The position numbers were made by a program, and so were the translations under genes. From the NCBI RefSeq assembly GCF_054482525.1, contig NZ_CM137006.1: a stretch of DNA of 64,000 bases; one strand, 5' to 3'. Under the pieces are notes generated by a model. It saw nothing but the letters and a program-made list of their open reading frames with translations. It searched no databases and was not told the origin of the DNA. Shown piece by piece: positions 1,986 to 59,785 of the stretch. Each line of letters starts with the position of its first letter. Positions within the stretch are counted from its first letter, which is position 1.

Positions 1986-4508
1986 TTATGCCGGGAGCTC
2001 CGGGGGGAATGCTTCTTCCAGTCGGTTAACCATATTGCCGAGATGGGATGCATCATATTCCATGACGGGGCGTTGCCTGATGATACTGACCACCAGTGGT
2101 TTGATTAACATATTGGTCGCGGCCCGTTGTTGTATACCGGCGGCGAAAATGATCTCCAGAGCATTCTGATCGATAACACGGGCCAGATTCTCGTTCAGAT
2201 TTTCAATCTCATGTCCGGTCAGCAGGAAACTGCCGGCAAGCCATGTCACCTGCTCCTGAATCATTGCCAGAATTTTGACGCGATCTTCTTCAACCAGCGC
2301 TCCGGCAATTTTTCCTGATACAGCGGAGGCAATCATTCCCCCCAGAACACCGCCAACCACACGTCCTGTCAGTGCACCAAATGGTCCCAGTGGACTGAAC
2401 AATATCCCGCCCGCCACTGACCCGACAGCACCACCTGCCACACCGGAAGATGCCACGGCAAGATTCCTGATGAACTGCGCACCGGAGATCCGTCCCCGCA
2501 ACATTTTGATCATGTCAGGGCCGGTTGTGACAGCTACCAGTGCCAGAGATGTTACCAGCGTACCCTTCATTACTTTGTTCAGGGCACTGATATTTCCTGC
2601 ACCGGTCCCCTTCTGAAGAGCCAGTCGGACAGTCGGGCTGGCAGTCGAAAAATCAATGTGCTTCAGCATACCCTGAACAACACTGAGCCGGTGGAGTTGC
2701 TGGGTTGTGACGTAGACAGCCAGTGTGCGGGTGAAGGTTTTTCCTGCCTGGACAGCAGCTGTCTGCAGGGCAGCATCGCGATCGCCGGTGCTGAGCCAGA
2801 AGACCGATGCCGTCAGGGCAAAACTGATCCCTCCGGCCGCCAGACTGACAACCGAACCCTCGGCAATATCATAAGTGACCGATTCGATGGTCCCGAACCG
2901 GGTGATATTACGGGCCTGAGTATAAGTCAGATGTCCCCGACGAATCAGCCGGGACGCTTCTGCGGGATCGGTTACACCGGGTACTTTACCTTCGCGGATC
3001 TTATTCCTCATGGTTTCAACAGCGCCGGCATACTGATCACGGGGGACTTCCAGTTGCATGGGGCCATTATTTCCCATGTAACGATACTGTCCGTTTTGTC
3101 CGTCGAATGCCGCACCGACGCTACGGGCTGCAGTTGAACAATATTTCGTCTGGATTTCTGTTCCGCTGACCAGTCTGTCTGCTCCATTTCTGGCATTATT
3201 ATCACCGAGGATCCGTGCGTTTTTCAGACGGACTCTGTCGACAATATGGTTTCCCCGTTCAGCGGCAAACCCATGTCCCTGCCCTCCGGAAGCAAACATT
3301 TTCTCATTTGTACTCCAGGTTTCCGGCAGTTTCATGAGAATCAGACCATTCGCCGTTGCATCGGAAATAAAGCTGTTGTAAGGGCGTTCATAAATTTCCT
3401 GACACAGTGTTTCTGTTTCGCGACAAAGAGAGGTGCAGTACCATTCCGGATCCAGCTTATGATTTTCCGGGGCATGATGTACTTCTGTCAGCCCGCAGGA
3501 GGCACAGATACGAAGCTCATCCACGTGATGGAATGATACAAAACGGCGACCTTCTGAAAAGGGATACCAGTCACCGCCGTCCAGGCAACGATCGAGAAAA
3601 TCGTCATTCGCTTCCGGTGATAAATTCAGGCGGTTCCGGAAGAGCGTTTTCAGTTCATCAGGTGTGAATGACAGGTTCTCTTTCAACTGTTCGTTAAACC
3701 CTGCCATGTTTCTTTCATACCAGGCATTGTTCAGTAACCAGTTTCCGTCTGCCAGTTCAAATTCCCTCAGCTCTCCCCGGGAAATCCGTTGAGAAATGAG
3801 CGTCAGCCAGATGCGCTCCGTCAGTGAGTCAGGAAGGCTGTAATCGTTTTGCAAACTGGTCAGCCACGATTTACTGTTGAGCACCGGTTGTTCTTCCAGT
3901 GTCTGGCTGATGGCACAGGTCAGTTTTTTCAGCGCCTGGATCTGGCTGGCCGCCCATAGCAGCGTCACTAATGCAGCCAGCCAGTACAACAACCCGCCCC
4001 ACCACATCAGTGACGGTGAAATATCGTACTGTAACGCGATCAATGGTGCGCATGCAGAACACGCCATAAGGAAAAAGGCAGTATAAAAACAGCAGTAATA
4101 CCCGTTAATTTCCTTGCTGATATCTTCTGGTGTGATCCCGTTCTGCTGAATGTTTTTGATCTGCAGGGGAACAGCCAGCAGACCACCGGCGAGAGCGGTG
4201 GTCAGAATAAATTTCACAGAGTCAAAGGTGTGAGCCTCCAGCGCGATATGTTTACCATCAAGTCCCCACATGAAGCTGATGATCATTCCGGCAATCGTCA
4301 GAAATACGCCTGCCAGCCAGCGAATATGGAACAACCGGGTTATGCGTTCGGTGATATAGCCAGCCAGTAAGGCCGGGCCGAACAGACACAGCAATATGAG
4401 CCCTGCCAGCGCAGAAGCCGTGCTGATTAATGCTCTGAACAAAAGGCGAAGAATGGCAAATCCTGCGATCAGCAGGATCAGCGCGCCGACTATCTGTAAC
4501 ATAGTCAC
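1986..4508 (-). CDS. yeeR: YeeR-like inner-membrane protein (long form, 840 aa)
   Basis: The N-terminal ~200 aa contain several hydrophobic helices. There is a Cys/His cluster (ICASCGLTEVHH…WYCTSLC) and a Gly-rich hydrophobic C-terminal region. The first ~500 aa read like K-12 YeeR, and the gene sits directly downstream of the Ag43 gene as yeeR does. Confidence 0.7.
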   Translation of the reverse strand: MTMLQIVGALILLIAGFAILRLLFRALISTASALAGLILLCLFGPALLAGYITERITRLFHIRWLAGVFLTIAGMIISFMWGLDGKHIALEAHTFDSVKFILTTALAGGLLAVPLQIKNIQQNGITPEDISKEINGYYCCFYTAFFLMACSACAPLIALQYDISPSLMWWGGLLYWLAALVTLLWAASQIQALKKLTCAISQTLEEQPVLNSKSWLTSLQNDYSLPDSLTERIWLTLISQRISRGELREFELADGNWLLNNAWYERNMAGFNEQLKENLSFTPDELKTLFRNRLNLSPEANDDFLDRCLDGGDWYPFSEGRRFVSFHHVDELRICASCGLTEVHHAPENHKLDPEWYCTSLCRETETLCQEIYERPYNSFISDATANGLILMKLPETWSTNEKMFASGGQGHGFAAERGNHIVDRVRLKNARILGDNNARNGADRLVSGTEIQTKYCSTAARSVGAAFDGQNGQYRYMGNNGPMQLEVPRDQYAGAVETMRNKIREGKVPGVTDPAEASRLIRRGHLTYTQARNITRFGTIESVTYDIAEGSVVSLAAGGISFALTASVFWLSTGDRDAALQTAAVQAGKTFTRTLAVYVTTQQLHRLSVVQGMLKHIDFSTASPTVRLALQKGTGAGNISALNKVMKGTLVTSLALVAVTTGPDMIKMLRGRISGAQFIRNLAVASSGVAGGAVGSVAGGILFSPLGPFGALTGRVVGGVLGGMIASAVSGKIAGALVEEDRVKILAMIQEQVTWLAGSFLLTGHEIENLNENLARVIDQNALEIIFAAGIQQRAATNMLIKPLVVSIIRQRPVMEYDASHLGNMVNRLEEAFPPELPA

Positions 4509-33840: not shown

Positions 33841-34951
33841 CTTACTGAAAAAACACCACAATCTTGTTAAACATCGTCGGATTGGACTGATTACGTTGCA
33901 CTTTCACCACATATTCCAGCTTATCTATTTGGCTTATCACCTACTCCAGACGCTGGTCATCCTTGACCAGTAGCCAGATATGGCTTTTGTCGCAGTCCTG
34001 AATCGGCAGGCAGAGAATGTCTTCAACGTTAAGAGCGCGACGGGCAAAAGCCCACAAAGGTGAGTCATTACACCCGGATGGTAAACAGGCACTTCCTTGT
34101 TGTAGAAGCCGTTATATTGTCCATAATGTCTGGGTTTTTAATGCATACTGGGTAACAACCGGACGAATCTTCGAATATCACTGGCGCTGCCAGCCGGTTT
34201 GAATTCATCTCACAACCCTGCATAGAGCGAATCTCCTGCCTGCACGTCACTCCACTCCATGGTATCAACTTCACACTCTTTATCTGCGGCTAGTTTCAGC
34301 CACCAGATAAGCATCGACTATGAAAGATGAGCCATGACAACATAACGTTGGTAACGCTCTGACGCCTTAATGGAAGATGCCTGCCACCATAGGGAATGTA
34401 AACGACTGAAGTGTGGCCTTTAATGCCGTGAACGGCTCATGGTCTCCTGGCACGGTTGCCGCCCCAACCTGTAACAACATTCCACAGTACAATGTCTGTC
34501 AGAGTCAGAGCCTCCCATGCTTGTTGTAGTAACTCTACCAGTTACGAACATCCTTCCTCAAAATTGTTGTCATATCTCGCATGGAAGAAAAGATCCTGGC
34601 TAAGGAGCAACACACAACGTATTGCGGAACTTGCATATTTTTCCTGTAACTAGTGTATTACCACATATGGTAATAGCTACCTGTGTGGTTTCGCTGGATA
34701 GCAAGGGGATTTATTCGCAAGTAAAATGCCTGATAAAATACACGAATCTAGTAATCATCAATATTTACTCTGGTCGAATGACGCGTGAAGTGGACTGCCA
34801 GCAGACGCGGCCAGTGGTCCACCGCCTGCTGAACAAAACGCCAGATATCTCCCGGCTCTGAAAGTAACGCTTCGGTTATTTGCACGGAATACTACTCCTT
34901 CAGACTCTGTTAAGTTTTGTTTGTTAAACCGGTGCAGACCTGCAGGAAAGC

Positions 34952-42932: not shown

Positions 42933-44369
42933 TCAACCTTTCTTAATCATTGCCGAAATTGCGCCACAGTCATGAAACTTATCAAAACCAGTGGTGCCTT
43001 TGATATATTCAGTAACCAGAGTACCAATAATCTTAACCGTTTCTTTGTTCGTTGTGATAAAGCCCAGTGGCATCGTTACAGGCAATATTTCGGGTTGAGA
43101 AATATGATAGATAACGGCAGATAACTCATCCTCAAGATGAAGGATCTCAACATTACCATCTAACAGCCCCTCAACTAGTCCTTTAGCGTACTCATGGAAT
43201 TGCCCAAGTTCATACTTCCACTGTCTGGCAACCCGAGCATCAGCTGCATCCCGGACAGGTACGTACAGCACCGGTTTATACAGCTGCTTATCCTTCGTAG
43301 CCGACTTGCTAAGAAAATTGCTCAGGCTTGAGATAAATCGAATGCTTTTTGACCAGTAGGGATCTGATGGTGCCACCCAGATGAACGGGCTACCTCCATA
43401 ATCAGTTTTATCTCTGATACGCTGATTGAGCGCTGGTGCCAGAGCTTTCTGCAGCTTTTCCCAGTTGTTTTTAGAATAAACCGGACCTAAAAAAGTCGTT
43501 CTGCCTGAGGACGAGTATTCTTCCAGTGCTTGCATATCTTTGATAAACAACGGATTAAGTCGATTCGTTTTAGAGTCAAACAGCTTAAGCGTAAGGTCAT
43601 CGTTAATGGATTGCATGGCCTTAAAAATACTCATGGTATTGTTATGCCGTGATAACCTGGCTATCTCAACAGCCATTAACTCATGAACACATTCCGAACT
43701 ATTTAACTGTTCATAGTCTTCACGCTCGACAGCCTTACCATCGCTATCCATTTTAAATTCCGTTGTTAAACGGAGTGGTATTTGCCGCAGCTTATTAACA
43801 GAATTAACGGTATAGATAGAAGGTTGTTCTTTTCCGACCTGAACCTGCAGGTGAGACAGGTAACCTTTATCCAGGATTTGATTAAACTGGTATTGAAAGT
43901 GCTTCTCAACCAGTTTCTCACTTTGAGAAATGTTGTTGTCATCAACCTTTAATGTTACCCCTCCCCTCCAGTGGTCCTGAAAAGCCTGGTTGCTGAAGCA
44001 ACTAAATGTGGCTAAATCAAAGGATAAGGTACAGCCACTGTCCTGAATAGTTGAAAGATGCGGTATCTCGCCAACCTCTGAAAAATAGCCATTTGATTTG
44101 TCTGTTAAGGCCAGTCTGCCGTCTGAGGAGAGCGTCAATTCGCCACGCTGCACAAGATCGGAAATCGCCTCCTCTGTCTCACGGTGGGTCAGGCCGAAAT
44201 AGGTTGCTATTTGTGCTTTGCTCATCGAAGCTACATGAACAAGTCTCAGCACAAACTCCCGGATAAATGGCAGCCCCTTCTGGGAAACATAGGAAAACTG
44301 AATGTTAAACCTCTGTGCTGGCAGCAGGAAGTCAACCTCATGATAGGTAACTTTGTTATCAGATATCAT
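42933..44369 (-). CDS. Hypothetical 478-aa protein with N-terminal winged-helix-like domain; partner of the NERD-kinase-helicase gene
   Basis: Its ATG (44369) overlaps the upstream gene's TGA (ATGA at 44366-44369). Residues ~45-95 ([41 protein letters not shown]) look like a MarR-type wHTH. The rest is unassigned. Confidence 0.75.
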
Positions 44370-47682: not shown

Positions 47683-47736
47683 TGAACCGCCCCGGGAATC
47701 CTGGAGACTAAACTCCCTGAGAAAGAGGTAAACAGG

Positions 47737-48063
47737 ATGACTAAAAATACTCGTTTTTCCCCCGAAGTCCGTCAGAGGGCGATTCGTATGGTTCTGGAAA
47801 GTCAGGGCGAATATGACTCACAGTGGGCGGCAATTTGTTCCATTGCCCCAAAGATTGGCTGTACACCGGAGACTCTGCGTGTCTGGGTACGCCAGCATGA
47901 GCGGGATACCGGAGGCGGTGATGGCGGGCTCACCACCGCTGAACGTCAGCGTCTGAAAGAGCTGGAACGTGAAAATCGTGAACTGCGCCGCAGTAACGAT
48001 ATCCTTCGCCAGGCTTCCGCTTATTTTGCGAAGGCGGAGTTCGACCGCCTCTGGAAAAAATGA
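47737..48063 (+). CDS. IS629 OrfA (HTH transposase subunit)
   Basis: A 108-aa ORF ([26 protein letters not shown]…) with a leucine-zipper-like C-terminus. It overlaps orfB (ATGA at 48060-48063). Confidence 0.9.
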
Positions 48064-48950
48064 TGCCACTGCTGGATAAGCTGCGTGAGCAGTACGGGGT
48101 CGGACCGCTATGCAGCGAACTGCATATTGCCCCGTCAACGTATTACCACTGTCAGCAACAGCGACATCATCCGGATAAACGCAGTGCCCGTGCGCAGCGC
48201 GATGACTGGCTGAAGAAAGAGATACAGCGCGTATACGATGAAAATCATCAGGTGTACGGTGTGCGTAAAGTCTGGCGTCAGTTGTTACGGGAAGGTATCA
48301 GAGTGGCCAGATGCACTGTGGCACGTCTCATGGCGGTTATGGGACTTGCCGGTGTTCTCCGGGGTAAAAAGGTCCGTACGACCATCAGCCGGAAAGCCGT
48401 TGCCGCAGGCGACCGCGTAAACCGTCAGTTCGTGGCAGAACGACCTGACCAGCTGTGGGTGGCTGATTTTACTTACGTCAGCACATGGCGGGGCTTCGTC
48501 TATGTGGCGTTCATCATTGATGTGTTTGCCGGATACATCGTGGGGTGGCGGGTCTCATCGTCTATGGAAACGACATTCGTGCTGGATGCTCTGGAGCAGG
48601 CGTTATGGGCCCGTCAACCGTCCGGCACAGTCCATCACAGTGATAAAGGTTCTCAGTATGTATCGCTGGCCTACACACAGCGGCTTAAGGAAGCCGGATT
48701 ACTGGCATCAACAGGAAGTACTGGTGACTCGTATGACAACGCGATGGCGGAGAGCATCAATGGCCTTTACAAAGCGGAGGTAATACACCGTAAGAGCTGG
48801 AAAAACCGGACAGAAGTGGAGCTGGCCACACTCACGTGGGTGGACTGGTATAACAATCGACGATTGCTGGAAAGGCTGGGCCATATCCCACCGGCAGAAG
48901 CAGAAAAAGCTTATTATGCTTCCATCGGAAACGATGATCTGGCAGCCTGA
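48060..48950 (+). CDS. IS629 OrfB (DDE integrase-core transposase)
   Basis: A 296-aa ORF with …WVADFTYV…[11 protein letters not shown]…[17 protein letters not shown]…. Confidence 0.9.
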
Positions 48951-48992
48951 GTTCACAGATAAAACACTCTCCAGGAAACCCGGGGCGGTTCA

Positions 48993-50649: not shown

Positions 50650-51311
50650 CGGTGTTCTCCTTAAATTTCAGTAAAAATAAGGTCATTTATTCTGGTCAAT
50701 ATGGCAGGTTTCGATGTTTATAGTTCTGAATACTATGGTGTTTTACACGTTCATTCTGGTTATTATACGTAGAAAAGAATTTATCGGGCAACGCCGAGAT
50801 GACGCGGCCCCGTTAAACCGTGTAGTGGTAGATGATGAGATCAGATACAGGGATCAACTGACGGTGAGCGCAGTCCCCACATTTTATCCGGAGTTTACCG
50901 CTATTCCCGGCTGCCATTCGTTAGCACAGGCCCGCAAGTACCCTGATTTGCCGCTGGTTTTGCTTTCCCATCGAAGGGCCCATACATCATCACGCCCGCG
51001 AAACAGTCGACAAAATAACGCAACTTTCTCATCCGTGGATAATACGGAAACGCACTGCACAGGACTCTGCGGTTTACGTCACCATTCAATCCCATAAGCT
51101 TCAAGTTATGTTTGCCCTCAGTGCAGCTAATTCATCACTGTCAGATTTATGAACCATATTCGTTACCTGTATCCGATCCACTGAGGCACCACGGCAGAAA
51201 TTCGGGTCCCCTACACTGATGACAAAGCGCCCCGCCCTCTTCTGCCTATTAACTCAAGCACCTCCCAACAACTTACAGAAACTTAATTCTAATACCTAAT
51301 ACAACTGTAAT

Positions 51312-51875
51312 TCAGTTATGTCGTGGTCGGCCCCGGTTGCTTTTTTCGGGAAGCCTGCTACGGCCCAGAATAATACCGTGTTCTTTCTGATCCTGTTTAG
51401 CCAGGTAGCTAAGGGCGTAACGTAAACCGTCTACCGCAGACTTATCACTATAGTGAATCACGTGATCGATACGCACCGGGTATTTGTCTTTAGTACTGCA
51501 CAGGTGAAAATAACCCTCCCCTTCCGTGATCCGACTCCAGATATCTCCCAGTTGCCTGGATATCCGATAAAATTTCTTGTGACGTTGCCCATCCAAGTAG
51601 CCGATAAAATGAATATGAAGTCCCTTGTTTGACGTATATTCCATTACCCAGTAATATCCCGCCAGCATCGTTTGGGTTTCACTAAGTAAGCGGTGCATTT
51701 CAATACACATACTGTGCCTACAGGAATGACCAAAACTGGGCGTGTCTTTCCTGTAGGCAAAATCAATTCTGAAAGGTAACAGTTTAGAAAAACGTTGAAA
51801 CAGACCTTCCATGTGTTCATTCACGTCTTTCAGAATCATGAAGTCCATTTCGTAATTGGGATTAGCATTATACAT
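51312..51875 (-). CDS. YagK/YfjJ-family (inovirus Gp2-like) island protein
   Basis: A 187-aa ORF. GLHIHFIGYL (HUH-like) and LRYALSYLAKQDQKE resemble the HYHVILLL and YRLSYLAK motifs of K-12 YfjJ/YagK as I recall them. The position after the yfjI-like gene is as in CP4-57. Confidence 0.65.
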   Translation of the reverse strand: MYNANPNYEMDFMILKDVNEHMEGLFQRFSKLLPFRIDFAYRKDTPSFGHSCRHSMCIEMHRLLSETQTMLAGYYWVMEYTSNKGLHIHFIGYLDGQRHKKFYRISRQLGDIWSRITEGEGYFHLCSTKDKYPVRIDHVIHYSDKSAVDGLRYALSYLAKQDQKEHGIILGRSRLPEKSNRGRPRHN

Positions 51876-52695: not shown

Positions 52696-54147
52696 TCAGA
52701 GGTCAAAGTTAGGTGCGACACACAACGTTTTTCCCTCAATAACCGGTACAACTCTGTTTTGTTCATACAGTAAATCCAGTAACCAGTTGATTTTATCCTT
52801 TTTCCGGAAACGGTTCGGACCACGCTGTAAAATGTCATTTTTTTTCATACAGAGGATCCCCTTCTCAATACAATAGCTTTTTATCCAGTTGAAAAGTTCA
52901 AGCTCCTCTGGAATGAGTCGCACAGGTACGGTCAGGGCAGAGTTGTCAAAAGTTAACGGATTAGACAACCGCACATACTCATTACCGTACCATATTGCTA
53001 ATTCTCTCGCCATTTCTGCAGTGTAAGGGGAAATCTCCCCCTCTTCACCGCTCGAATGGTAAATAAGTCCTGCCAATCTTGCCATATACTCTGCATTTTT
53101 AGCAGCATATTCCCGGCAATGTCTTAAAGGCCCCAATCCCCCCAGCTTCGATTCCACATCATTGTAATAATCCGTCCAGATTCTGGCAGCCTGAGGAGAA
53201 AAGTGAAGGCAACGTCGTTCACCACTCATCGCCAGACTTTCATCAATAAGCTCATTGATCCTCTCTTCAAACAAATCCTGATACTGTGATGAATAATTAT
53301 CTCCGGTTATTATCCTTGTCCCCTGCGTTGATGTTGGTTGACACATCAAAAACCTTGCATGATGTCCTGACGTTTTCACAATTTCTTTTTTTCGCGTACA
53401 AAAACCTTTGTGGTAAACATCAGGCTGAATCATCACCGATATCGTCAGTCTTGGCTCCTTCAAATTAATTCCGGGAGATGATTTCCTGTCGATGAAAAGA
53501 GAACCTCCATCCCACAAAGTGTTAATAATTCCCAGTTTACTCATGGCCCGGCTGTCAAAAATTACCCCCCCTTCACTGGATACAAGAGCAAAAGAGCGAT
53601 TGCTATCGGAGTAATATTTTAACATTCCCTCTATCGTTGTCTCATTAAAAATTGTTCGACGTATCTGCGGCGGAACAGGAGGTTTATTCAGATGCGTTTC
53701 AAGCTCTGATTCTGTTGCCTTGTAATCTTTACCGGCACGAATCTCTTTATGAAATTTTGATTCCAGCGCTTTTTGTTTTTGCTCCCATATTTCCTTTTCT
53801 GTACTGTAATTCTCAACCAGTTTCGCGTATTCTTCCGCCAGGGCTTCATCCCTGAGATAAAATGCTTTCATAAACACTTTATCCACGGTCGTTTTCCTTT
53901 CACCGGAATCAGCCAGAATCAGAGAGTAAAGATTAACAGGCCCATGTAAATTTCCAGGTCTGCATACGTCAATCTGATTCTGACAGGCAATTGAGATCGC
54001 TGTTAATGCGGATGTTGCCACCATAGCCAAAGGTGCCTGTGTATTTTTTTGAGTTTCAATTATTGCATTTCTCACCAGCGGTGGTAGTGCATATATCGGA
54101 TAAGGATTTTCTGGTGCAAGTAAGCACATAAAAGCCTCTCTTTTCAT
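52696..54147 (-). CDS. YfjI-like (DUF3987) island protein, 483 aa
   Basis: The N-terminus …YPIYALPPLVRNAIIETQKNTQAPLAMVATSALTAISIACQ…ADSGERKTTVDK… reads like the YfjI/DUF3987 family. It is followed by a hairpin terminator (~52640-52672). Confidence 0.65.
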   Translation of the reverse strand: MKREAFMCLLAPENPYPIYALPPLVRNAIIETQKNTQAPLAMVATSALTAISIACQNQIDVCRPGNLHGPVNLYSLILADSGERKTTVDKVFMKAFYLRDEALAEEYAKLVENYSTEKEIWEQKQKALESKFHKEIRAGKDYKATESELETHLNKPPVPPQIRRTIFNETTIEGMLKYYSDSNRSFALVSSEGGVIFDSRAMSKLGIINTLWDGGSLFIDRKSSPGINLKEPRLTISVMIQPDVYHKGFCTRKKEIVKTSGHHARFLMCQPTSTQGTRIITGDNYSSQYQDLFEERINELIDESLAMSGERRCLHFSPQAARIWTDYYNDVESKLGGLGPLRHCREYAAKNAEYMARLAGLIYHSSGEEGEISPYTAEMARELAIWYGNEYVRLSNPLTFDNSALTVPVRLIPEELELFNWIKSYCIEKGILCMKKNDILQRGPNRFRKKDKINWLLDLLYEQNRVVPVIEGKTLCVAPNFDL

Positions 54148-54771: not shown

Positions 54772-55068
54772 TTATCTGCTCATGGTCATATCTGAAGAAA
54801 GCGTATGTCTCACTTCGTCATTAACACCTTTGACTGCTGATCTGGCAGGTACAGTATGTAAAGTAAGCCATTCGTCAATAGCTGATGAACGCCAGCCCAC
54901 AGAACCACTACCAAGACGTACCGGCCTGGGGAAGGTTGCATCGTAGTATTTCGATAACGGATTCATTTTTTCGTAAATTGTCGAACGAGATATACCTAAC
55001 AATTGGCTCAGTTCAGGCATCCGTAAGATGCGTGAAGGAGTCCTGCAGTGTCCGGATTGATCTGGCAT
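54772..55068 (-). CDS. alpA: AlpA-family (MerR-type HTH, excisionase-like) regulator
   Basis: RILRMPELSQLLGISRSTIYEKMNP…FPRPVRLGSGSVGWRSSAIDEWL matches the AlpA/phage regulatory protein pattern. The start is uncertain: ATG 55068 follows ggggga, with alternatives at 55080 and 55152. Confidence 0.7.
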   Translation of the reverse strand: MPDQSGHCRTPSRILRMPELSQLLGISRSTIYEKMNPLSKYYDATFPRPVRLGSGSVGWRSSAIDEWLTLHTVPARSAVKGVNDEVRHTLSSDMTMSR

Positions 55069-55276
55069 TTTATCCCCCATAGTGTGGTGAACTGTCGTTA
55101 CAGTTTGTATTCCCCGGGTAAATTTGTCTGCGTAAAAAAATGGGTTGAGCAAAAAGACAATAAATAATTAAAAATCAATATGATAGAAAACGACAGCATT
55201 AGTGTTATTTTACTTTTCCCTTATCGCTGTCGATTCTCATTATCATTCATGGCAAAAAAACAGCAAAAGAGGCCCT

Positions 55277-56039
55277 GGTAATGACTCCTGTCAGTAGTAC
55301 ATGTGTTTTCGATAAATGAACCAATGGCTTTTCGTGAATTTCCAGGGAGCGTAAAAAGTAAATCGTTTTCCGGGCAGGTCGTTTGATGTGAGTACGAAGT
55401 GTCAGATTGTTGCGCTCAATGCGCCGGGTAAATATCTTGCCGACAAGATGCTTATCCTGTGGCATTTCTCTGGTATAACTGCTCCGGTTGTCTCTGGTTA
55501 TCATGCCTGCGGAGAATGGCTTCAGGAATTCCGGCAACTCACGGCATGTTTCATCAGTGCGAGGACCAAAAGTGTAAGCCAGCACACCGTCAGCTTTGGT
55601 CTTATACGCGTACCAGTGCCACTGCTGACGAGCTTTGTTTTCGACAAAACTCCATTGTTCATCAAGTTCACAGATAAGTGCCACATCGACACTGGCGGCT
55701 GGAGATATGGTTACTTTACGTGGTGAGCGTTTTTTAAAGTGAGAATGACGGTGTTGATATCCACCTTCAGCGTTCTGGAGCTATCGCGAACCCCGGCTCC
55801 GTTATGAACCATTTCAACAATTTGCTCTTTAATGCCTGGTTTTCGGGTTTCGTAGATGTAATTCAGTTGAAATACACGTTTGCAGGATTAGCACTGGAAA
55901 CGCTCATGATCTGAGGTGCTGTGATCATAACGGTACACTTTATAGGAATTACAGCGGGGAGAATATACTGTAACTGTTGCCATATGGTCTCCAGATACCA
56001 ATAGAATACAACATTAATCTATCGTCAGAAGGCATCACC
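55277..56039 (-). mobile_element. Degenerate IS1-family element (~763 bp) with inactivated insA/insB
   Basis: The ends ggtaatgactcc (55277) and …ggcatcacc (56039) resemble IS1 terminal repeats. The insA-like frame MATVTVYSPRCNSYKVYRYDHSTSDHERFQC*S… has an in-frame stop. The insB-like ORF (55247-55684) reads …ICELDEQWSFV…FTRRIERNNLTLR…. Confidence 0.7.
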
Positions 56040-56179
56040 GGGGCCTTCTGACATAATCTGTTAATACGTGTACTATTACCCTGTTCAGAAAACATTGATT
56101 CAAAAATGAAAACCAGTTAACAGAAAAGCAAAATGATATAATGTTAAAATTTTATATAGTGCAATAAAAGGAGAATGTT

Positions 56180-57997
56180 ATGTATAATTTTATCACTATA
56201 ATGTATGATGTCTTTTCATGTTTTGGTGTTCTGGCTAAAAACCAGAATAGCCGTGACATCCGAAATATTAAAAATTTTTCCTCACATCAACATTCACTGG
56301 GCGACATGTTTGATGAATTAATAAACATTATTGATAAAGAACAAGTATTGAGTAAAGAACAACGAAAAGTTATATTTAGGAGATATGAAGATCTCTATGT
56401 TAAGCTAATGCACTATTCTGTTTTTACAGACAAAACACATCAAATAATAAAACAAAAATATTTTAATGACATTGTACCAATGATTCTCGCACTCGACATC
56501 AGGAACACATATCGCCCGGATAATGAGATGGCATTTTACTATCATATTCATTCTTTTCTCACTCAGATACCGGATAATGAGGATGATATATATCATGCTG
56601 CAAGGACATATCTGCGAAATTACGTTAAGTTATGTTTATCCGGATACACGCCAGCGAATGCGCATTTCAAAGATATCTTTGATGGCGTATATGAATTCAT
56701 TCGTAATATTCGCAAAAACAGTACACCAGGAAAAACAAAACTTATCGCAACTATCAACACATGCAAAGAAACCTGTAAACATCTGCTTTATTTAAGTAAT
56801 GAAGACAAGGAAAAAATAATTTCTGACTTAGATAAAGTTCAGGTTGCATGTTATTATCTCACTATATTACTGGCTTTCGAAAGACGAACTTCATTAACAA
56901 GCACCCTGGCAACTTTATATAAAATGCTGATAAGCGAAAGAGAAGTTTCAGAATATGAATGCCAGTTATTATATTTAACCAACCCAATAGATGTAATGAA
57001 TATACTGAACAAATACATATATTACTTTCCTAATGAGAACTCACCATTTTATACACTGAAAATTGACAGTGCATTATCGTGGGATGCCATTGACGCAATA
57101 CGAGACTATAGTATTTCTGATATTTATCTTTATCCTGAACAAAAAACAATAAATTGTGTCGTTGAGATTGAAAACATTGTCTTTGGCGGTTACATTTATA
57201 CATTGAACAACGGCGTCACATTACAAAACATAGAAAACTCTTTAAAAGATTCTTCATGCCATTATGTCTTAAATGGCTATACAGAATTTGTTAACTGTTT
57301 GAGACAACTTACTTCAGGAAAGACTGAAAGTGTTCATCGCACCATCAATAAACTGAACTATGAGAAATTACCTTTTGGATTTATCATTGCCGCGTTTGCT
57401 ATACTAAAGATAGCATTTAAAATAAAATTCAGTAAAAATCATGTAAATATCCGAGCATTATTAAATGACATCAATTATTTTATGACTTATCAGGGCGAGT
57501 CCATTAACCTTATTTCACTGGATCACGAATACCCAGAGTCCTGTCTTCAAAATGACACAAACACATATTTATTAGGAAGAGTAATATTTCTGTATAACTC
57601 AATGATTTATAAGTTCATAAACTGTCAGGAACATGAAACCAATAACATTCACTCAGCTATGATAAATAACCTATTACAGGAAGTTGATATAGCCCTTGGT
57701 AAAATAAATGACATTATAGACAGCAGAAACATATCAACCCCCCATGAACTGGCAAATATTCTTACCCGCGAAAAAATACTTACAACACGGGAAAAAAAAG
57801 GAAACCTGATAAGCCTGTTTGATGGATTCACTTTATTCCATTGTGTTGGAATGATAACCTTTCTTATCCATTATCTCAGAACACCTGAAGAAAAAGTTGA
57901 AAATATATTTATGTTATATGGTGCAGATAAAAACAATAAACTACGCAGAAGACTGATTTATGACGCACTAGGAATAATTCAGTCTCAGCAGGAGTGA
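56180..57997 (+). CDS. Hypothetical 605-aa protein, very AT-rich, no recognised family
   Basis: An uninterrupted 1.8-kb ORF in strongly AT-rich DNA with aaaaggagaatgtt SD-like sequence upstream. It is predicted to be largely helical, with one hydrophobic segment (LPFGFIIAAFAILKIAF). It is convergent with int. Confidence 0.7.
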   Translation: MYNFITIMYDVFSCFGVLAKNQNSRDIRNIKNFSSHQHSLGDMFDELINIIDKEQVLSKEQRKVIFRRYEDLYVKLMHYSVFTDKTHQIIKQKYFNDIVPMILALDIRNTYRPDNEMAFYYHIHSFLTQIPDNEDDIYHAARTYLRNYVKLCLSGYTPANAHFKDIFDGVYEFIRNIRKNSTPGKTKLIATINTCKETCKHLLYLSNEDKEKIISDLDKVQVACYYLTILLAFERRTSLTSTLATLYKMLISEREVSEYECQLLYLTNPIDVMNILNKYIYYFPNENSPFYTLKIDSALSWDAIDAIRDYSISDIYLYPEQKTINCVVEIENIVFGGYIYTLNNGVTLQNIENSLKDSSCHYVLNGYTEFVNCLRQLTSGKTESVHRTINKLNYEKLPFGFIIAAFAILKIAFKIKFSKNHVNIRALLNDINYFMTYQGESINLISLDHEYPESCLQNDTNTYLLGRVIFLYNSMIYKFINCQEHETNNIHSAMINNLLQEVDIALGKINDIIDSRNISTPHELANILTREKILTTREKKGNLISLFDGFTLFHCVGMITFLIHYLRTPEEKVENIFMLYGADKNNKLRRRLIYDALGIIQSQQE

Positions 57998-58029
57998 AGA
58001 GTTAAACAGGCAAATTATTTTTTATAAAA

Positions 58030-58052
58030 AGGGGATTGTTAAGTAATCCCCT
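58030..58052. terminator. Hairpin between the convergent 605-aa gene and int
   Basis: aggggatt-gttaagt-aatcccct, flanked by A/T runs on both sides. Confidence 0.5.
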
Positions 58053-58183
58053 GTTAATCAAAATACGCTTTCCTGACGATCTGATAATTATCAGCTCAAT
58101 ACATTTGACATAAAAGCGGTTTCTTAATTACTACTGCTACGATCACATATCAAATCATGATCGTACAATATACATTTTCACTA

Positions 58184-59386
58184 TTATTTATTCACAATTT
58201 GAGACATCACATAATCCGCCCATGCCTGCATCATCGGTACACGCTGCTCCAGTAGATCAGTACGATGATATGCCGCCTCAACCTTATTTTTCAGCGTATG
58301 AGCGAGCGCCCTTTCCGCCAGATCCCGCGAATACCCCTGTTCGCTACACCAGTCCCTGAATGTTGAGCGAAAACCATGTGCCGTGGCAACTCGCCCCGGA
58401 ATGTCACTGACGGCTTTCTTTTTACGCAGAAAACTTGTCAACACCATATCGGAAAGGATCTGCTGCTTTCTGGGTGAAGGGAACACCAGTTCATCATGCA
58501 GGCCACGTATATTTTCCAGAATGTAAATAGCCTGCCGGGATAAAGGAACACGATGCTGTAGCCTAGCTTTCATTCTTTCTGCAGGTATAGTCCATACCCG
58601 CTTATGAAAATCAATTTCAGCCCAGCGCATTCCCCTGGCTTCGCCCGAGCGAGTTGCTGTAAGTATCACCATTAATAACAGTGCGCGGGTAACATTATAA
58701 GGTTCATCGGTATACACACTGGTCGCCACAAAAAGCGGTAACTGCCTCCAGGGCATTGCGGGTTGGTGTTCATCACGTCCTCTTGTCTGCTGAGGAAGCA
58801 AATGGTCAACCACATCAACAGGATTTGCTACACAAAAACCGTGCGCCCATCCCCACTGCATAACAACATGAATGCGCTGTTTAACCCGGCTTGCCGTTTC
58901 TGACAAGGTTAACCAGACTGGACGCAGTGTTTCTGCCACGTCCGCAGCCGTAATCGAATCCAGCGTTTTTGCTCCCAGTTGAGGAAACGCGTAATTCTCA
59001 AGCGTCGATAACCACTGCCTTACATGCTTTGGATTTTCCCATCCAGGAGACAGTTCTGCATGTACACGCCTGGCTGCATCGGCAAATGTTGGGATAGCGA
59101 CTTTCTCAGATTCAGCCTTTTTAATCTCCAGAGGATCATCACCTGCAGCAAGTTGCTCTCGCATTATCCGGGCAGTACGTGCAGCTTCAGCAATACTGAC
59201 CTCTGGGTAAGTTCCCAATCCAGCATTACGTCTTTTTTGTGTCACCGGACTTACATAACGAAAAACCCATTTCCCCCGCCCCTTTACTGAAGAAGGATGA
59301 AGGGTCAGTCCGGTAATTCCCCCATGGGGCAATGGTTTGTCATCAGGTTTGATATGTCTTGCTTTCGTATCCGTCAATACTGCCAT
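58184..59386 (-). CDS. int: P4-type tyrosine recombinase (island integrase), apparently intact
   Basis: 400 aa. The N-terminal arm-binding region reads MAVLTDTKARHIKPDDKPLPHGG…. The catalytic region carries TATRSGEAR, AHGFRSTFRDW and HTLKNKVEAAYHRTDLLEQR (R…HxxR…Y). Its 5-prime end faces the att repeats. Confidence 0.9.
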   Translation of the reverse strand: MAVLTDTKARHIKPDDKPLPHGGITGLTLHPSSVKGRGKWVFRYVSPVTQKRRNAGLGTYPEVSIAEAARTARIMREQLAAGDDPLEIKKAESEKVAIPTFADAARRVHAELSPGWENPKHVRQWLSTLENYAFPQLGAKTLDSITAADVAETLRPVWLTLSETASRVKQRIHVVMQWGWAHGFCVANPVDVVDHLLPQQTRGRDEHQPAMPWRQLPLFVATSVYTDEPYNVTRALLLMVILTATRSGEARGMRWAEIDFHKRVWTIPAERMKARLQHRVPLSRQAIYILENIRGLHDELVFPSPRKQQILSDMVLTSFLRKKKAVSDIPGRVATAHGFRSTFRDWCSEQGYSRDLAERALAHTLKNKVEAAYHRTDLLEQRVPMMQAWADYVMSQIVNK

Positions 59387-59545: not shown

Positions 59546-59606
59546 TCCCCCTCACCGCCATATTCAAAGAAGAGCTCGTACGAAAGTGCGAGCTTTTTTT
59601 TCGCAT
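59546..59606 (+). repeat. att-type direct repeat copy 1: tRNA-Ser 3-prime end (…ccctcaccgcca) plus terminator hairpin
   Basis: tccccctcaccgccatattcaaagaagagctcgtacgaaagtgcgagcttttttttcgcat. Positions 59547-59587 are identical to 59727-59767. No tRNA body lies upstream. Confidence 0.7.
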
Positions 59607-59725
59607 ATTGCACTCCAGGGGGGATGAGAAGCCCCGACCGGGGTTCGACAACTGGCGCAGCCAGTTGGACAGACCACGAACGCAGTGAGTGGGCTGCCCG
59701 CAGGGCGAGCGAAGCGAGTCAATCC

Positions 59726-59785
59726 CCCCCCTCACCGCCATATTCAAAGAAGAGCTCGTACGAAAGTACGAGTTTTTTTTCGCAT
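59726..59785 (+). repeat. att-type direct repeat copy 2: tRNA-Ser (serW) 3-prime end plus its terminator
   Basis: aatccccccctcaccgcca followed by the ctcgtac-gaaa-gtacgag hairpin and T8. It lies exactly 180 bp from copy 1, and there is again no complete tRNA upstream. Confidence 0.7.

Follow-up and report, generated by a model that had tools for sequence, protein, structure and literature searches.

An alpA-divergent gene encoding a predicted all-alpha protein in CP4-57- and SRL-type islands of Enterobacterales

In the Staphylococcus aureus pathogenicity islands (SaPIs) stl is encoded opposite str, and in lambdoid phages cI is encoded opposite cro. In PIME1 islands a luxR-type regulator gene lies divergent to alpA, and excision depends on both genes (bioRxiv 10.64898/2026.01.12.698999), which may serve as a precedent for a second, alpA-divergent regulator required for excision. 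In the SRL pathogenicity island (PAI) of Shigella flexneri 2a the gene order is int, yfjI, rox and then orf4, the last described as having 'no similarity' (PMC6980539). In the CP4-57 island of Escherichia coli K-12 the corresponding place, between intA and alpA and on the strand opposite to and divergent from alpA-yfjI-yfjJ, is taken by the gene for YfjH, an uncharacterised protein. Here we describe X, by which we designate the 605-codon open reading frame (ORF) located near one end of a 64,000-nucleotide stretch of contig NZ_CM137006.1 (RefSeq assembly GCF_054482525.1; the whole stretch is referred to as the window). X corresponds to RefSeq entry WP_023356228.1, is annotated as 'hypothetical protein' in every database, and is the subject of no study found in the searchable literature. 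Comparison of its relatives' loci identifies X as a fixed divergent partner of the alpA(rox)-yfjI-yfjJ excision and replication operon in CP4-57/SRL-PAI/O-island (OI) 43/48-type islands of Enterobacterales, and X is probably part of the island's own machinery.

The slot opposite alpA

In all of the 21 loci of X relatives, X is divergent from alpA-yfjI-yfjJ at a distance of about 60–205 bp overall and typically of about 100 bp (59–146 bp in seven of the loci), and it is the same family that occupies the slot opposite alpA in each of them, unlike what is seen in a cargo hotspot. The eight distant relatives that were looked up all stand head to head with an AlpA gene, which is followed by DUF3987 (YfjI) and then usually by a YagK/YfjJ Gp2-type gene; the integrase is found beyond the operon or is not on the contig at all, and several of the X-bearing elements are located at the tmRNA gene, like CP4-57. 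The remote member P0051 (866 aa, locus L056) shows the same divergent layout beside AlpA-DUF3987, with a gap of 205 bp. An independent test of the pairing made use of AlpA: loci of GTDB species representatives (one genome per species) were fetched by AlpA alignment, with search patterns drawn from the X-linked AlpAs, and scored with a hidden Markov model (HMM) of the X family. A GTDB scan with the X protein itself had given no match, the X profile being too variable for a pattern search. In each of the 13 Enterobacterales loci retrieved by AlpA alone (Kluyvera, Leclercia, Xenorhabdus, Pseudescherichia, Salmonella diarizonae, Enterobacter, Morganella, Providencia and two unnamed taxa), X lies on the other strand, 60–110 bp upstream of alpA, and none of the 23 AlpA-fetched loci of other orders has X, even at 55–63% AlpA identity. 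The X-linked AlpAs form a subfamily, with 51–99% mutual identity and 42–52% identity to CP4-57 AlpA, and the YfjI proteins beside them range from 23% to 98% identity. Islands with X relatives are known from ten or more genera of enterobacteria.

The first-pass annotation of this DNA had presented proximity to the integrase as a key feature of X, which the relatives contradict, their adjacent gene being alpA always and not the integrase. A copy of the insertion sequence (IS) IS1 lies inside the alpA-X control region in the window, as in every E. coli allele of its type, and the alpA-X module as a whole has been turned round, which brings X to face int; the closeness to the integrase is therefore an accident of this lineage. 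This old, dead IS1 has uncoupled X from alpA in the E. coli lineage of the window. That the element is dead, as first thought, agrees with the annotation of the identical region in strain AH62, 'IS1 family transposase; frameshifted; internal stop', corresponding to window positions 55291–55983. The element stops about 5 bp short of the −35-like CTGACA of X, and the same insertion is carried by L052, a locus with a diverged E. coli X allele.

Several other statements of the first-pass annotation hold. The ORF has the length, position and strand given there, and its contrast in AT-richness is real, with GC contents of 0.324 for X (0.39, 0.28 and 0.30 at codon positions 1, 2 and 3) and 0.42–0.55 for the flanking DNA. 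At this base composition a stop codon is expected every 13 codons and 605 open codons have a probability of ~1e-21, on which grounds chance is excluded as the origin of the frame; the longest ORF in 2000 shuffles of positions 56000–58100 is 161 codons, against an observed stop-to-stop length of 609. The full-length relatives, the dN/dS values and the confident AlphaFold model given below show X, earlier called probably a real gene, to be a protein-coding gene under purifying selection. What does not stand is the recent foreign origin deduced from AT-richness. In eight of eight loci X (GC 0.28–0.39) is 4–9 points lower than its own alpA operon (0.35–0.45), and therefore its AT-richness is no mark of recent import; low GC relative to the neighbours is a trait of the X family. 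The IS1-split layout, moreover, is also found in an E. coli allele that has diverged from X to a dS of 0.20. Promoter-like sites, assigned here and below as consensus matches only, number 23 against 12.9 ± 3.3; this excess is the one result that bears on the silencing by H-NS thought probable at first pass.

The X family was found by exhaustive HMMER scan only. Scanning 1.84 billion representatives gave 34 matches, about 14 of them full length (568–663 aa, 24–35% identity, aligned end to end), whereas word-indexed protein search, with X as single sequence or as profile, missed these relatives and returned E. coli copies only, at an identity of at least 91%. Family members are mostly 570–680 aa long, P0051 being longer, and length and motifs are kept down to 24% identity. 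Between 12 and 16 residues are invariant across the aligned relatives, several tyrosines (Y69, Y120 and Y367) among them; the N- and C-terminal ends are conserved and the centre (about residues 241–360) is variable. The AlphaFold model of X is confidently all-alpha, with a predicted local distance difference test score (pLDDT) of 83.8 and a predicted template modelling score (pTM) of 0.84. Searches of Pfam, NCBIfam, PHROGs and PADLOC gave no family match, in line with the first-pass remark that no motif was recognisable, a sequence profile search of the PDB gave nothing below E 0.06, and Foldseek comparison of the model with PDB and BFVD (viral structures) gave no significant match. Remote homology search and structure prediction, also proposed at first pass, have therefore produced relatives and no known family or fold, and the family is new by both sequence and predicted fold. 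Neither a DNA-binding nor any other known domain was detected in any of 19 family members, the Abi families of Pfam gave no match among the members, and Pfam scans of weak outlier matches for a fusion partner of X gave nothing informative. Homology of X to YfjH, the occupant of the CP4-57 slot, was rejected (hhalign probability 0.06, E 0.77), as was homology to the divergent ORFs beside alpA in Halomonas and Acinetobacter. The alleles of Morganella and Providencia (L024, L026, L014) have a Cys-rich insertion at about residues 330–370, in the variable centre (for example CNCDFDCGKKTKCECAPDY), which may be a metal-binding loop.

Alleles, control region and candidate roles

Of 5426 complete E. 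coli genomes, 1036 contain window-type X DNA, in most cases with an identity of at least 99%; O157:H7, O111, O121 and the uropathogenic 'clone D i2' are among them, and a second X allele is present in 170 further complete E. coli genomes. Between loci L010 and L014, AlpA, YfjI and YfjJ are 93%, 92% and 92% identical and X is only 39% identical; between L019 and L021 the values are 87% for AlpA, 93% for YfjI and only 38% for X. In blastn alignments a 90–92% identical block spans yfjJ, yfjI, alpA, the intergenic region and about the first 100 nt of X, and ends there. Closer X alleles are mosaics, with for example an N-terminal part at 83% and a centre at 99%, or an N-terminal part at 98% and a C-terminal part at 81%. 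Since alleles of 38–39% identity stand beside backbones of about 90%, they must have been exchanged by recombination, and the mosaics together with the backbone-flanked divergence argue for old allele classes being shuffled rather than for fast recent evolution. The body of X thus exists as deeply divergent alleles that recombine between near-identical backbones. Allele-specific exclusion of a second island is not favoured, about 55 genomes having two copies of the same allele class.

Comparison of the intergenic regions of L003–L005, L008, L014–L017, L019 and L024 with that of the window revealed two conserved motifs, CTGCCATAGCATCTGAGATACTGTCC, which includes a small TGCCA/TGGCA inverted repeat, and GGAAACCAACYGGAG, which extends into the ribosome-binding site, across loci with proteins that are about 30% identical. 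They probably represent divergent promoters or operators that overlap. The window has a diverged remnant of this region (Table 1), with about 55 additional AT-rich nucleotides before the ATG of X, and despite the IS1 it keeps promoter-like sites and a ribosome-binding site of its own for X.

Purifying selection on X, the lack of which had been named at first pass as a reason to abandon the idea, is evident from a dN/dS of 0.20 at a dS of 0.20 in the comparison with the L052 allele (yfjI 0.22, int 0.05), and from values of 0.16–0.33 over 92 allele pairs (80–96% identity, from genomes and metagenomes; the pairs are not independent). No region of X lies consistently above neutrality in these pairs, and pervasive positive selection in the variable centre was rejected, dN/dS being mostly 0.1–0.3 there. 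These values bear on the proposal that X encodes a virulence effector aimed at the host, or is decaying and without function. X does occur in islands of pathogens (O157:H7 OI-43/48, and an island with an enterotoxin gene), it is AT-rich, and some copies are disrupted; but the alpA linkage is strict in non-pathogens and in insect and nematode symbionts as well, all 14 complete metagenomic copies are intact, and length and motifs persist in distant relatives in addition to the low dN/dS. The distribution is not that of an effector restricted to pathogens with a cognate secretion system. The effector role suggested at first pass is unlikely because the same alpA pairing is found in islands of Kluyvera, Leclercia, Enterobacter, Pseudescherichia, Xenorhabdus, Morganella and Providencia, and we consider effector function and decay, taken together, highly improbable.

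One family per slot, a shared control region and a gene of which only the body varies lead us to favour a role in the decision-making of the island, and our tentative assignment for X is that of a sensor or regulator that the island encodes and that acts at the AlpA switch. X would act there as the island's control or sensor protein, its conserved N- and C-terminal scaffold coupling it to the AlpA module, probably via protein-protein contact, which is proposed in view of the lack of a detectable DNA-binding domain. Through its divergent centre each allele would acquire its specificity for a signal, such as a phage (helper or invading) or a plasmid, and the signal read by X would decide between continued integration of the island and its excision and replication. 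Various findings weigh against this assignment. The control region remains about 90% identical while the X allele changes, and X is therefore unlike an operator-specific repressor. None of the 19 family members examined has a recognisable DNA-binding domain, or any other. X is still under purifying selection in E. coli after the IS1 has cut it off from alpA, which fits an autonomous function of X at least as well. Finally, X can be dispensed with: the frame is broken in three of the 13 copies from species representatives, frameshifts or truncations affect a minority of E. coli alleles (L052 by loss of one base from an A8 run), and some copies are interrupted by IS elements. Frame disruption in homologues, named at first pass as an argument against the gene, thus exists but is confined to this minority, and X is best described, from its sequences, as a selected but dispensable gene in a backbone position.

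An autonomous function is what would be expected if X were a stand-alone immunity protein, an abortive infection (Abi)-like factor against phages or other mobile genetic elements, with its own promoter and forming a unit of its own beside the backbone, in which the variable centre recognises invader proteins and the conserved scaffold delivers an effect of a type that cannot be recognised. X is monocistronic and has a ribosome-binding site and promoter-like sites of its own, as well as a downstream hairpin or palindrome; it is always more AT-rich than the backbone, its alleles are deeply divergent and recombining, it is occasionally lost, and selection on it continues in E. coli after its separation from alpA. 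The islands, moreover, are packed with defence genes (CHAT, type I restriction-modification, SLATT, GAP1-N1 and DO-GTPase, Abi_alpha, Abi_C), and CP4-57 carries those for AbpAB and RnlAB. On the other hand, screening of the 19 family members against the 5027 PADLOC models gave only one stray match, to Cas6b (E 0.005, in a single member), and X has neither an effector domain nor a nuclease motif, and no clear transmembrane segment; neither the catalytic motif nor the fold of all-alpha nucleases (HEPN Rx4-6H; HD domain) was found. Defence hotspots normally hold unrelated systems, whereas a single family fills this slot in every locus, and the variable centre bears no sign of positive selection. 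X is also absent from phages, as judged by tblastn against 50,697 phage records and, by a proxy search with the palindrome described below, from IMG/VR; tblastn against plasmids returned only four E. coli records, which look like mis-filed chromosomal DNA. We regard an immunity function as the main alternative, though a somewhat unlikely one. Should it prove correct, X would be a new single-gene defence system, widespread in pathogens.

Most X loci outside E. coli contain a perfect palindrome of 34 bp, CTGCTACAGCTGCTAC-NN-GTAGCAGCTGTAGCAG, 10–130 bp past the X stop. It is made up of four CTGCTAC heptamers, is almost invariant, occurs once per locus and is far better conserved than the X protein. 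The palindrome could be a terminator, a recombination boundary, or a site resembling an origin of replication (ori) or transfer (oriT). With an ori- or oriT-like site, X might be an accessory of island mobility (replication, mobilisation or helper exploitation) that works on it together with the Gp2-type initiator YfjJ and with YfjI. The fixed, backbone-like position of X, the single palindrome close to its stop, the adjacency of X to 17 of 21 metagenomic palindromes and the invariance of the three tyrosines would all be in keeping with this. However, the palindrome also occurs without X, the other four metagenomic occurrences being after yfjJ, between an alpA-like gene and DUF3987, after a GAP1-N1 gene and at a contig edge, and conversely the window and the E. 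coli lineage keep X and have no palindrome. An enzyme acting on a conserved DNA site would not be expected to be 38% identical beside a 90% identical backbone, and no relaxase, Rep or recombinase fold was detected in X. We therefore consider a mobility accessory improbable. The 871-aa GAP1-N1 protein that adjoins one palindrome copy was examined as a homologue of X and rejected.

Returning to a sensor at the AlpA switch, its most far-reaching form would make X a new master sensor of mobile elements, of unmatched fold and without a DNA-binding domain, that gates AlpA/Rox-driven excision and replication and of which the alleles are tuned to different invaders. We rate this form as rather unlikely. 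If it were true, the island itself would be the induced response, and X would explain when very common 'cryptic' islands move. X-bearing islands carry tellurite resistance, urease, adhesin, toxin and many defence genes, the control of their excision and transfer is poorly understood, and a conserved, unannotated partner of the excision factor offers a concrete handle on it.

X and its surroundings in the window

Table 1. Coordinates of X, its neighbours and associated sites (window positions unless a locus is named)
Feature	Position	Strand	Remarks
yfjJ (YagK_YfjJ_C, inovirus Gp2-type)	51312–51875	-	third gene of the alpA operon
yfjI (DUF3987)	52696–54147	-	second gene of the alpA operon
DUF3987 fragment, 65 aa	54348–54545	-	between alpA and full yfjI; duplicates the YfjI N-terminus
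alpA (AlpA/Rox-type helix-turn-helix (HTH) excision factor and activator)	54772–55068	-	conserved divergent partner of X
Dead IS1	55247–56042	-	inserted within the alpA-X divergent control region, abutting the −35 of X
Diverged control-region remnant, CTGACATAATCTGTTAATAC ... AAAAATGAAAACCAG	~56047–56125		window copy of the alpA-X region
Promoter-like site CTGACA-N17-TACTAT	56048–56076		consensus match, within the control-region remnant
Second promoter-like site	56133–56160		consensus match
Ribosome-binding site AAGGAG of X	56168–56173	+	6 nt 5' of the ATG; sequence read directly
X	56180–57997	+	ATG start, TGA stop, 605 aa; member of an unnamed, predicted all-alpha family
A8 homopolymer within X	57792–57799	+	one base missing in the L052 allele, giving truncation to 542 aa
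Hairpin, 8-bp stem, AGGGGATT-GTTAAGT-AATCCCCT	58030–58052		between convergent X and int
P4-type tyrosine integrase	58184–59386	-	Arm-DNA-bind_3, Phage_int_M and Phage_integrase domains; convergent with X
Island end	59547–59780	+	two 54-nt direct repeats, 59547–59600 and 59727–59780
Palindrome copies	L003 5685–5702; L010 11935–11952; L014 12029–12046		
Palindrome copies	L016–L018, L020, L022–L024, L026, L027: about 3800–4070		
Palindrome copies	metagenome loci L058–L078		

The features of the window are collected in Table 1. The integrase gene is convergent with X as first described and encodes the three domains expected; in the literature, the integrase of EDL933 OI-43/48 is 99% identical to that of the SRL PAI. 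A hairpin shared between X and int, as also claimed at first pass, does exist, 33 nt past the X stop and 132 nt past the int stop, but has a T-run on the int strand only and is terminator-like there; its fold z-score of −1.4 is not unusual, and it has no relation to the 34-bp palindrome found after X in other genera. The 65-aa DUF3987 fragment is listed as a separate small coding sequence in RefSeq genome annotations.

Both 54-nt repeats at the island end start with CCCCCTCACCGCCA, the last 14 bp (3' end) of serW/serX and the core of the attachment (att) site, so that this core and the terminator-like sequence downstream of it are present in two copies, 180 bp apart and adjoining int. A tRNA gene adjoining int was ruled out: ARAGORN found no intact tRNA in the whole 64-kb window, which has only the serW/serX 3' fragments as att repeats. 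Between the repeats, at 59604–59740, there is a match to RtT RNA slightly under the Rfam threshold (41.3 versus 45 bits). Two 28-nt repeats on the minus strand, at 59783–59810 and 59843–59870, match Rfam CRISPR-DR4 with 50.1 and 29.7 bits (gathering threshold 35) and are separated by one 32-nt spacer; we take them to be a vestige of the CRISPR array of the E. coli clpA-infA region.

The island DNA at 34687–59782 is 99.8–100% identical to that of E. coli AH62 (L001). The neighbours of this DNA differ: in the window it adjoins clpA (the serW side), in AH62 a DUF2726 gene and phoH, and in O157:H7 ycdU (the serX side). The island or its flank has been moved or rearranged between the two identical tRNA-Ser sites. 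Compared with AH62 the window has an insertion of 1310 bp (47683–48992), presumably an IS, with a 296-aa ORF at 48060–48950, which interrupts the gene of a 1652-aa AAA-domain protein that is intact in AH62. This gene forms a pair with one of 478 aa and unknown function (window 42933–44369), and the same pair comes after a palindrome copy in metagenome locus L075. A 786-aa archaeo-eukaryotic primase protein ('TOTE conflict system'), presumably the IS-excision enhancer IEE of SpLE1, is encoded intact beside yfjJ in O157:H7 (L002 4666–7026) and is a frameshifted remnant in the island type of the window (about 50650–51200; L001 14823–15158).

X and the described switch and defence systems

The SRL PAI order of int, yfjI, rox(alpA), orf4 and Gp2 is that of the E. 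coli loci L005 and L079, which hold the P0026 allele, 33% identical to X, and from gene order only we infer that SRL orf4 is a member of the X family. Relative to the SRL PAI, the alpA-X module of the window is inverted with respect to int and split by IS1. YfjH shares with X its place and orientation in the island, but has 318 aa, belongs to no Pfam family and has no detectable relation to X. The single-gene defence proteins of P4- and P2-like hotspots resemble X in being autonomous, AT-rich and placed beside the integrase or backbone of a defence-rich island, and differ from it in that X represents one homologous family in its slot everywhere, without a PADLOC match or an effector domain.

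Like the PIME1 LuxR, SaPI Stl and lambdoid cI genes, X is divergent from an excision/replication operon with which it shares a short control region and, like phage immunity regions, it combines conserved flanks with deeply divergent alleles that are exchanged by recombination. Unlike Stl, cI, SetR and the PIME1 LuxR-type switch regulators, X has no HTH or other DNA-binding domain, and in contrast to LuxR, Stl and cI it is a protein of about 600 aa with an all-alpha model of unmatched fold. In contrast to operator-bound switch regulators, moreover, its control region does not co-vary with the allele (a 90–92% identical block against 38–39% for X). Taken together, the X protein fails the tests for switch regulators, defence families, YfjH and all-alpha nucleases, and in its layout the X locus resembles switch and immunity regions.

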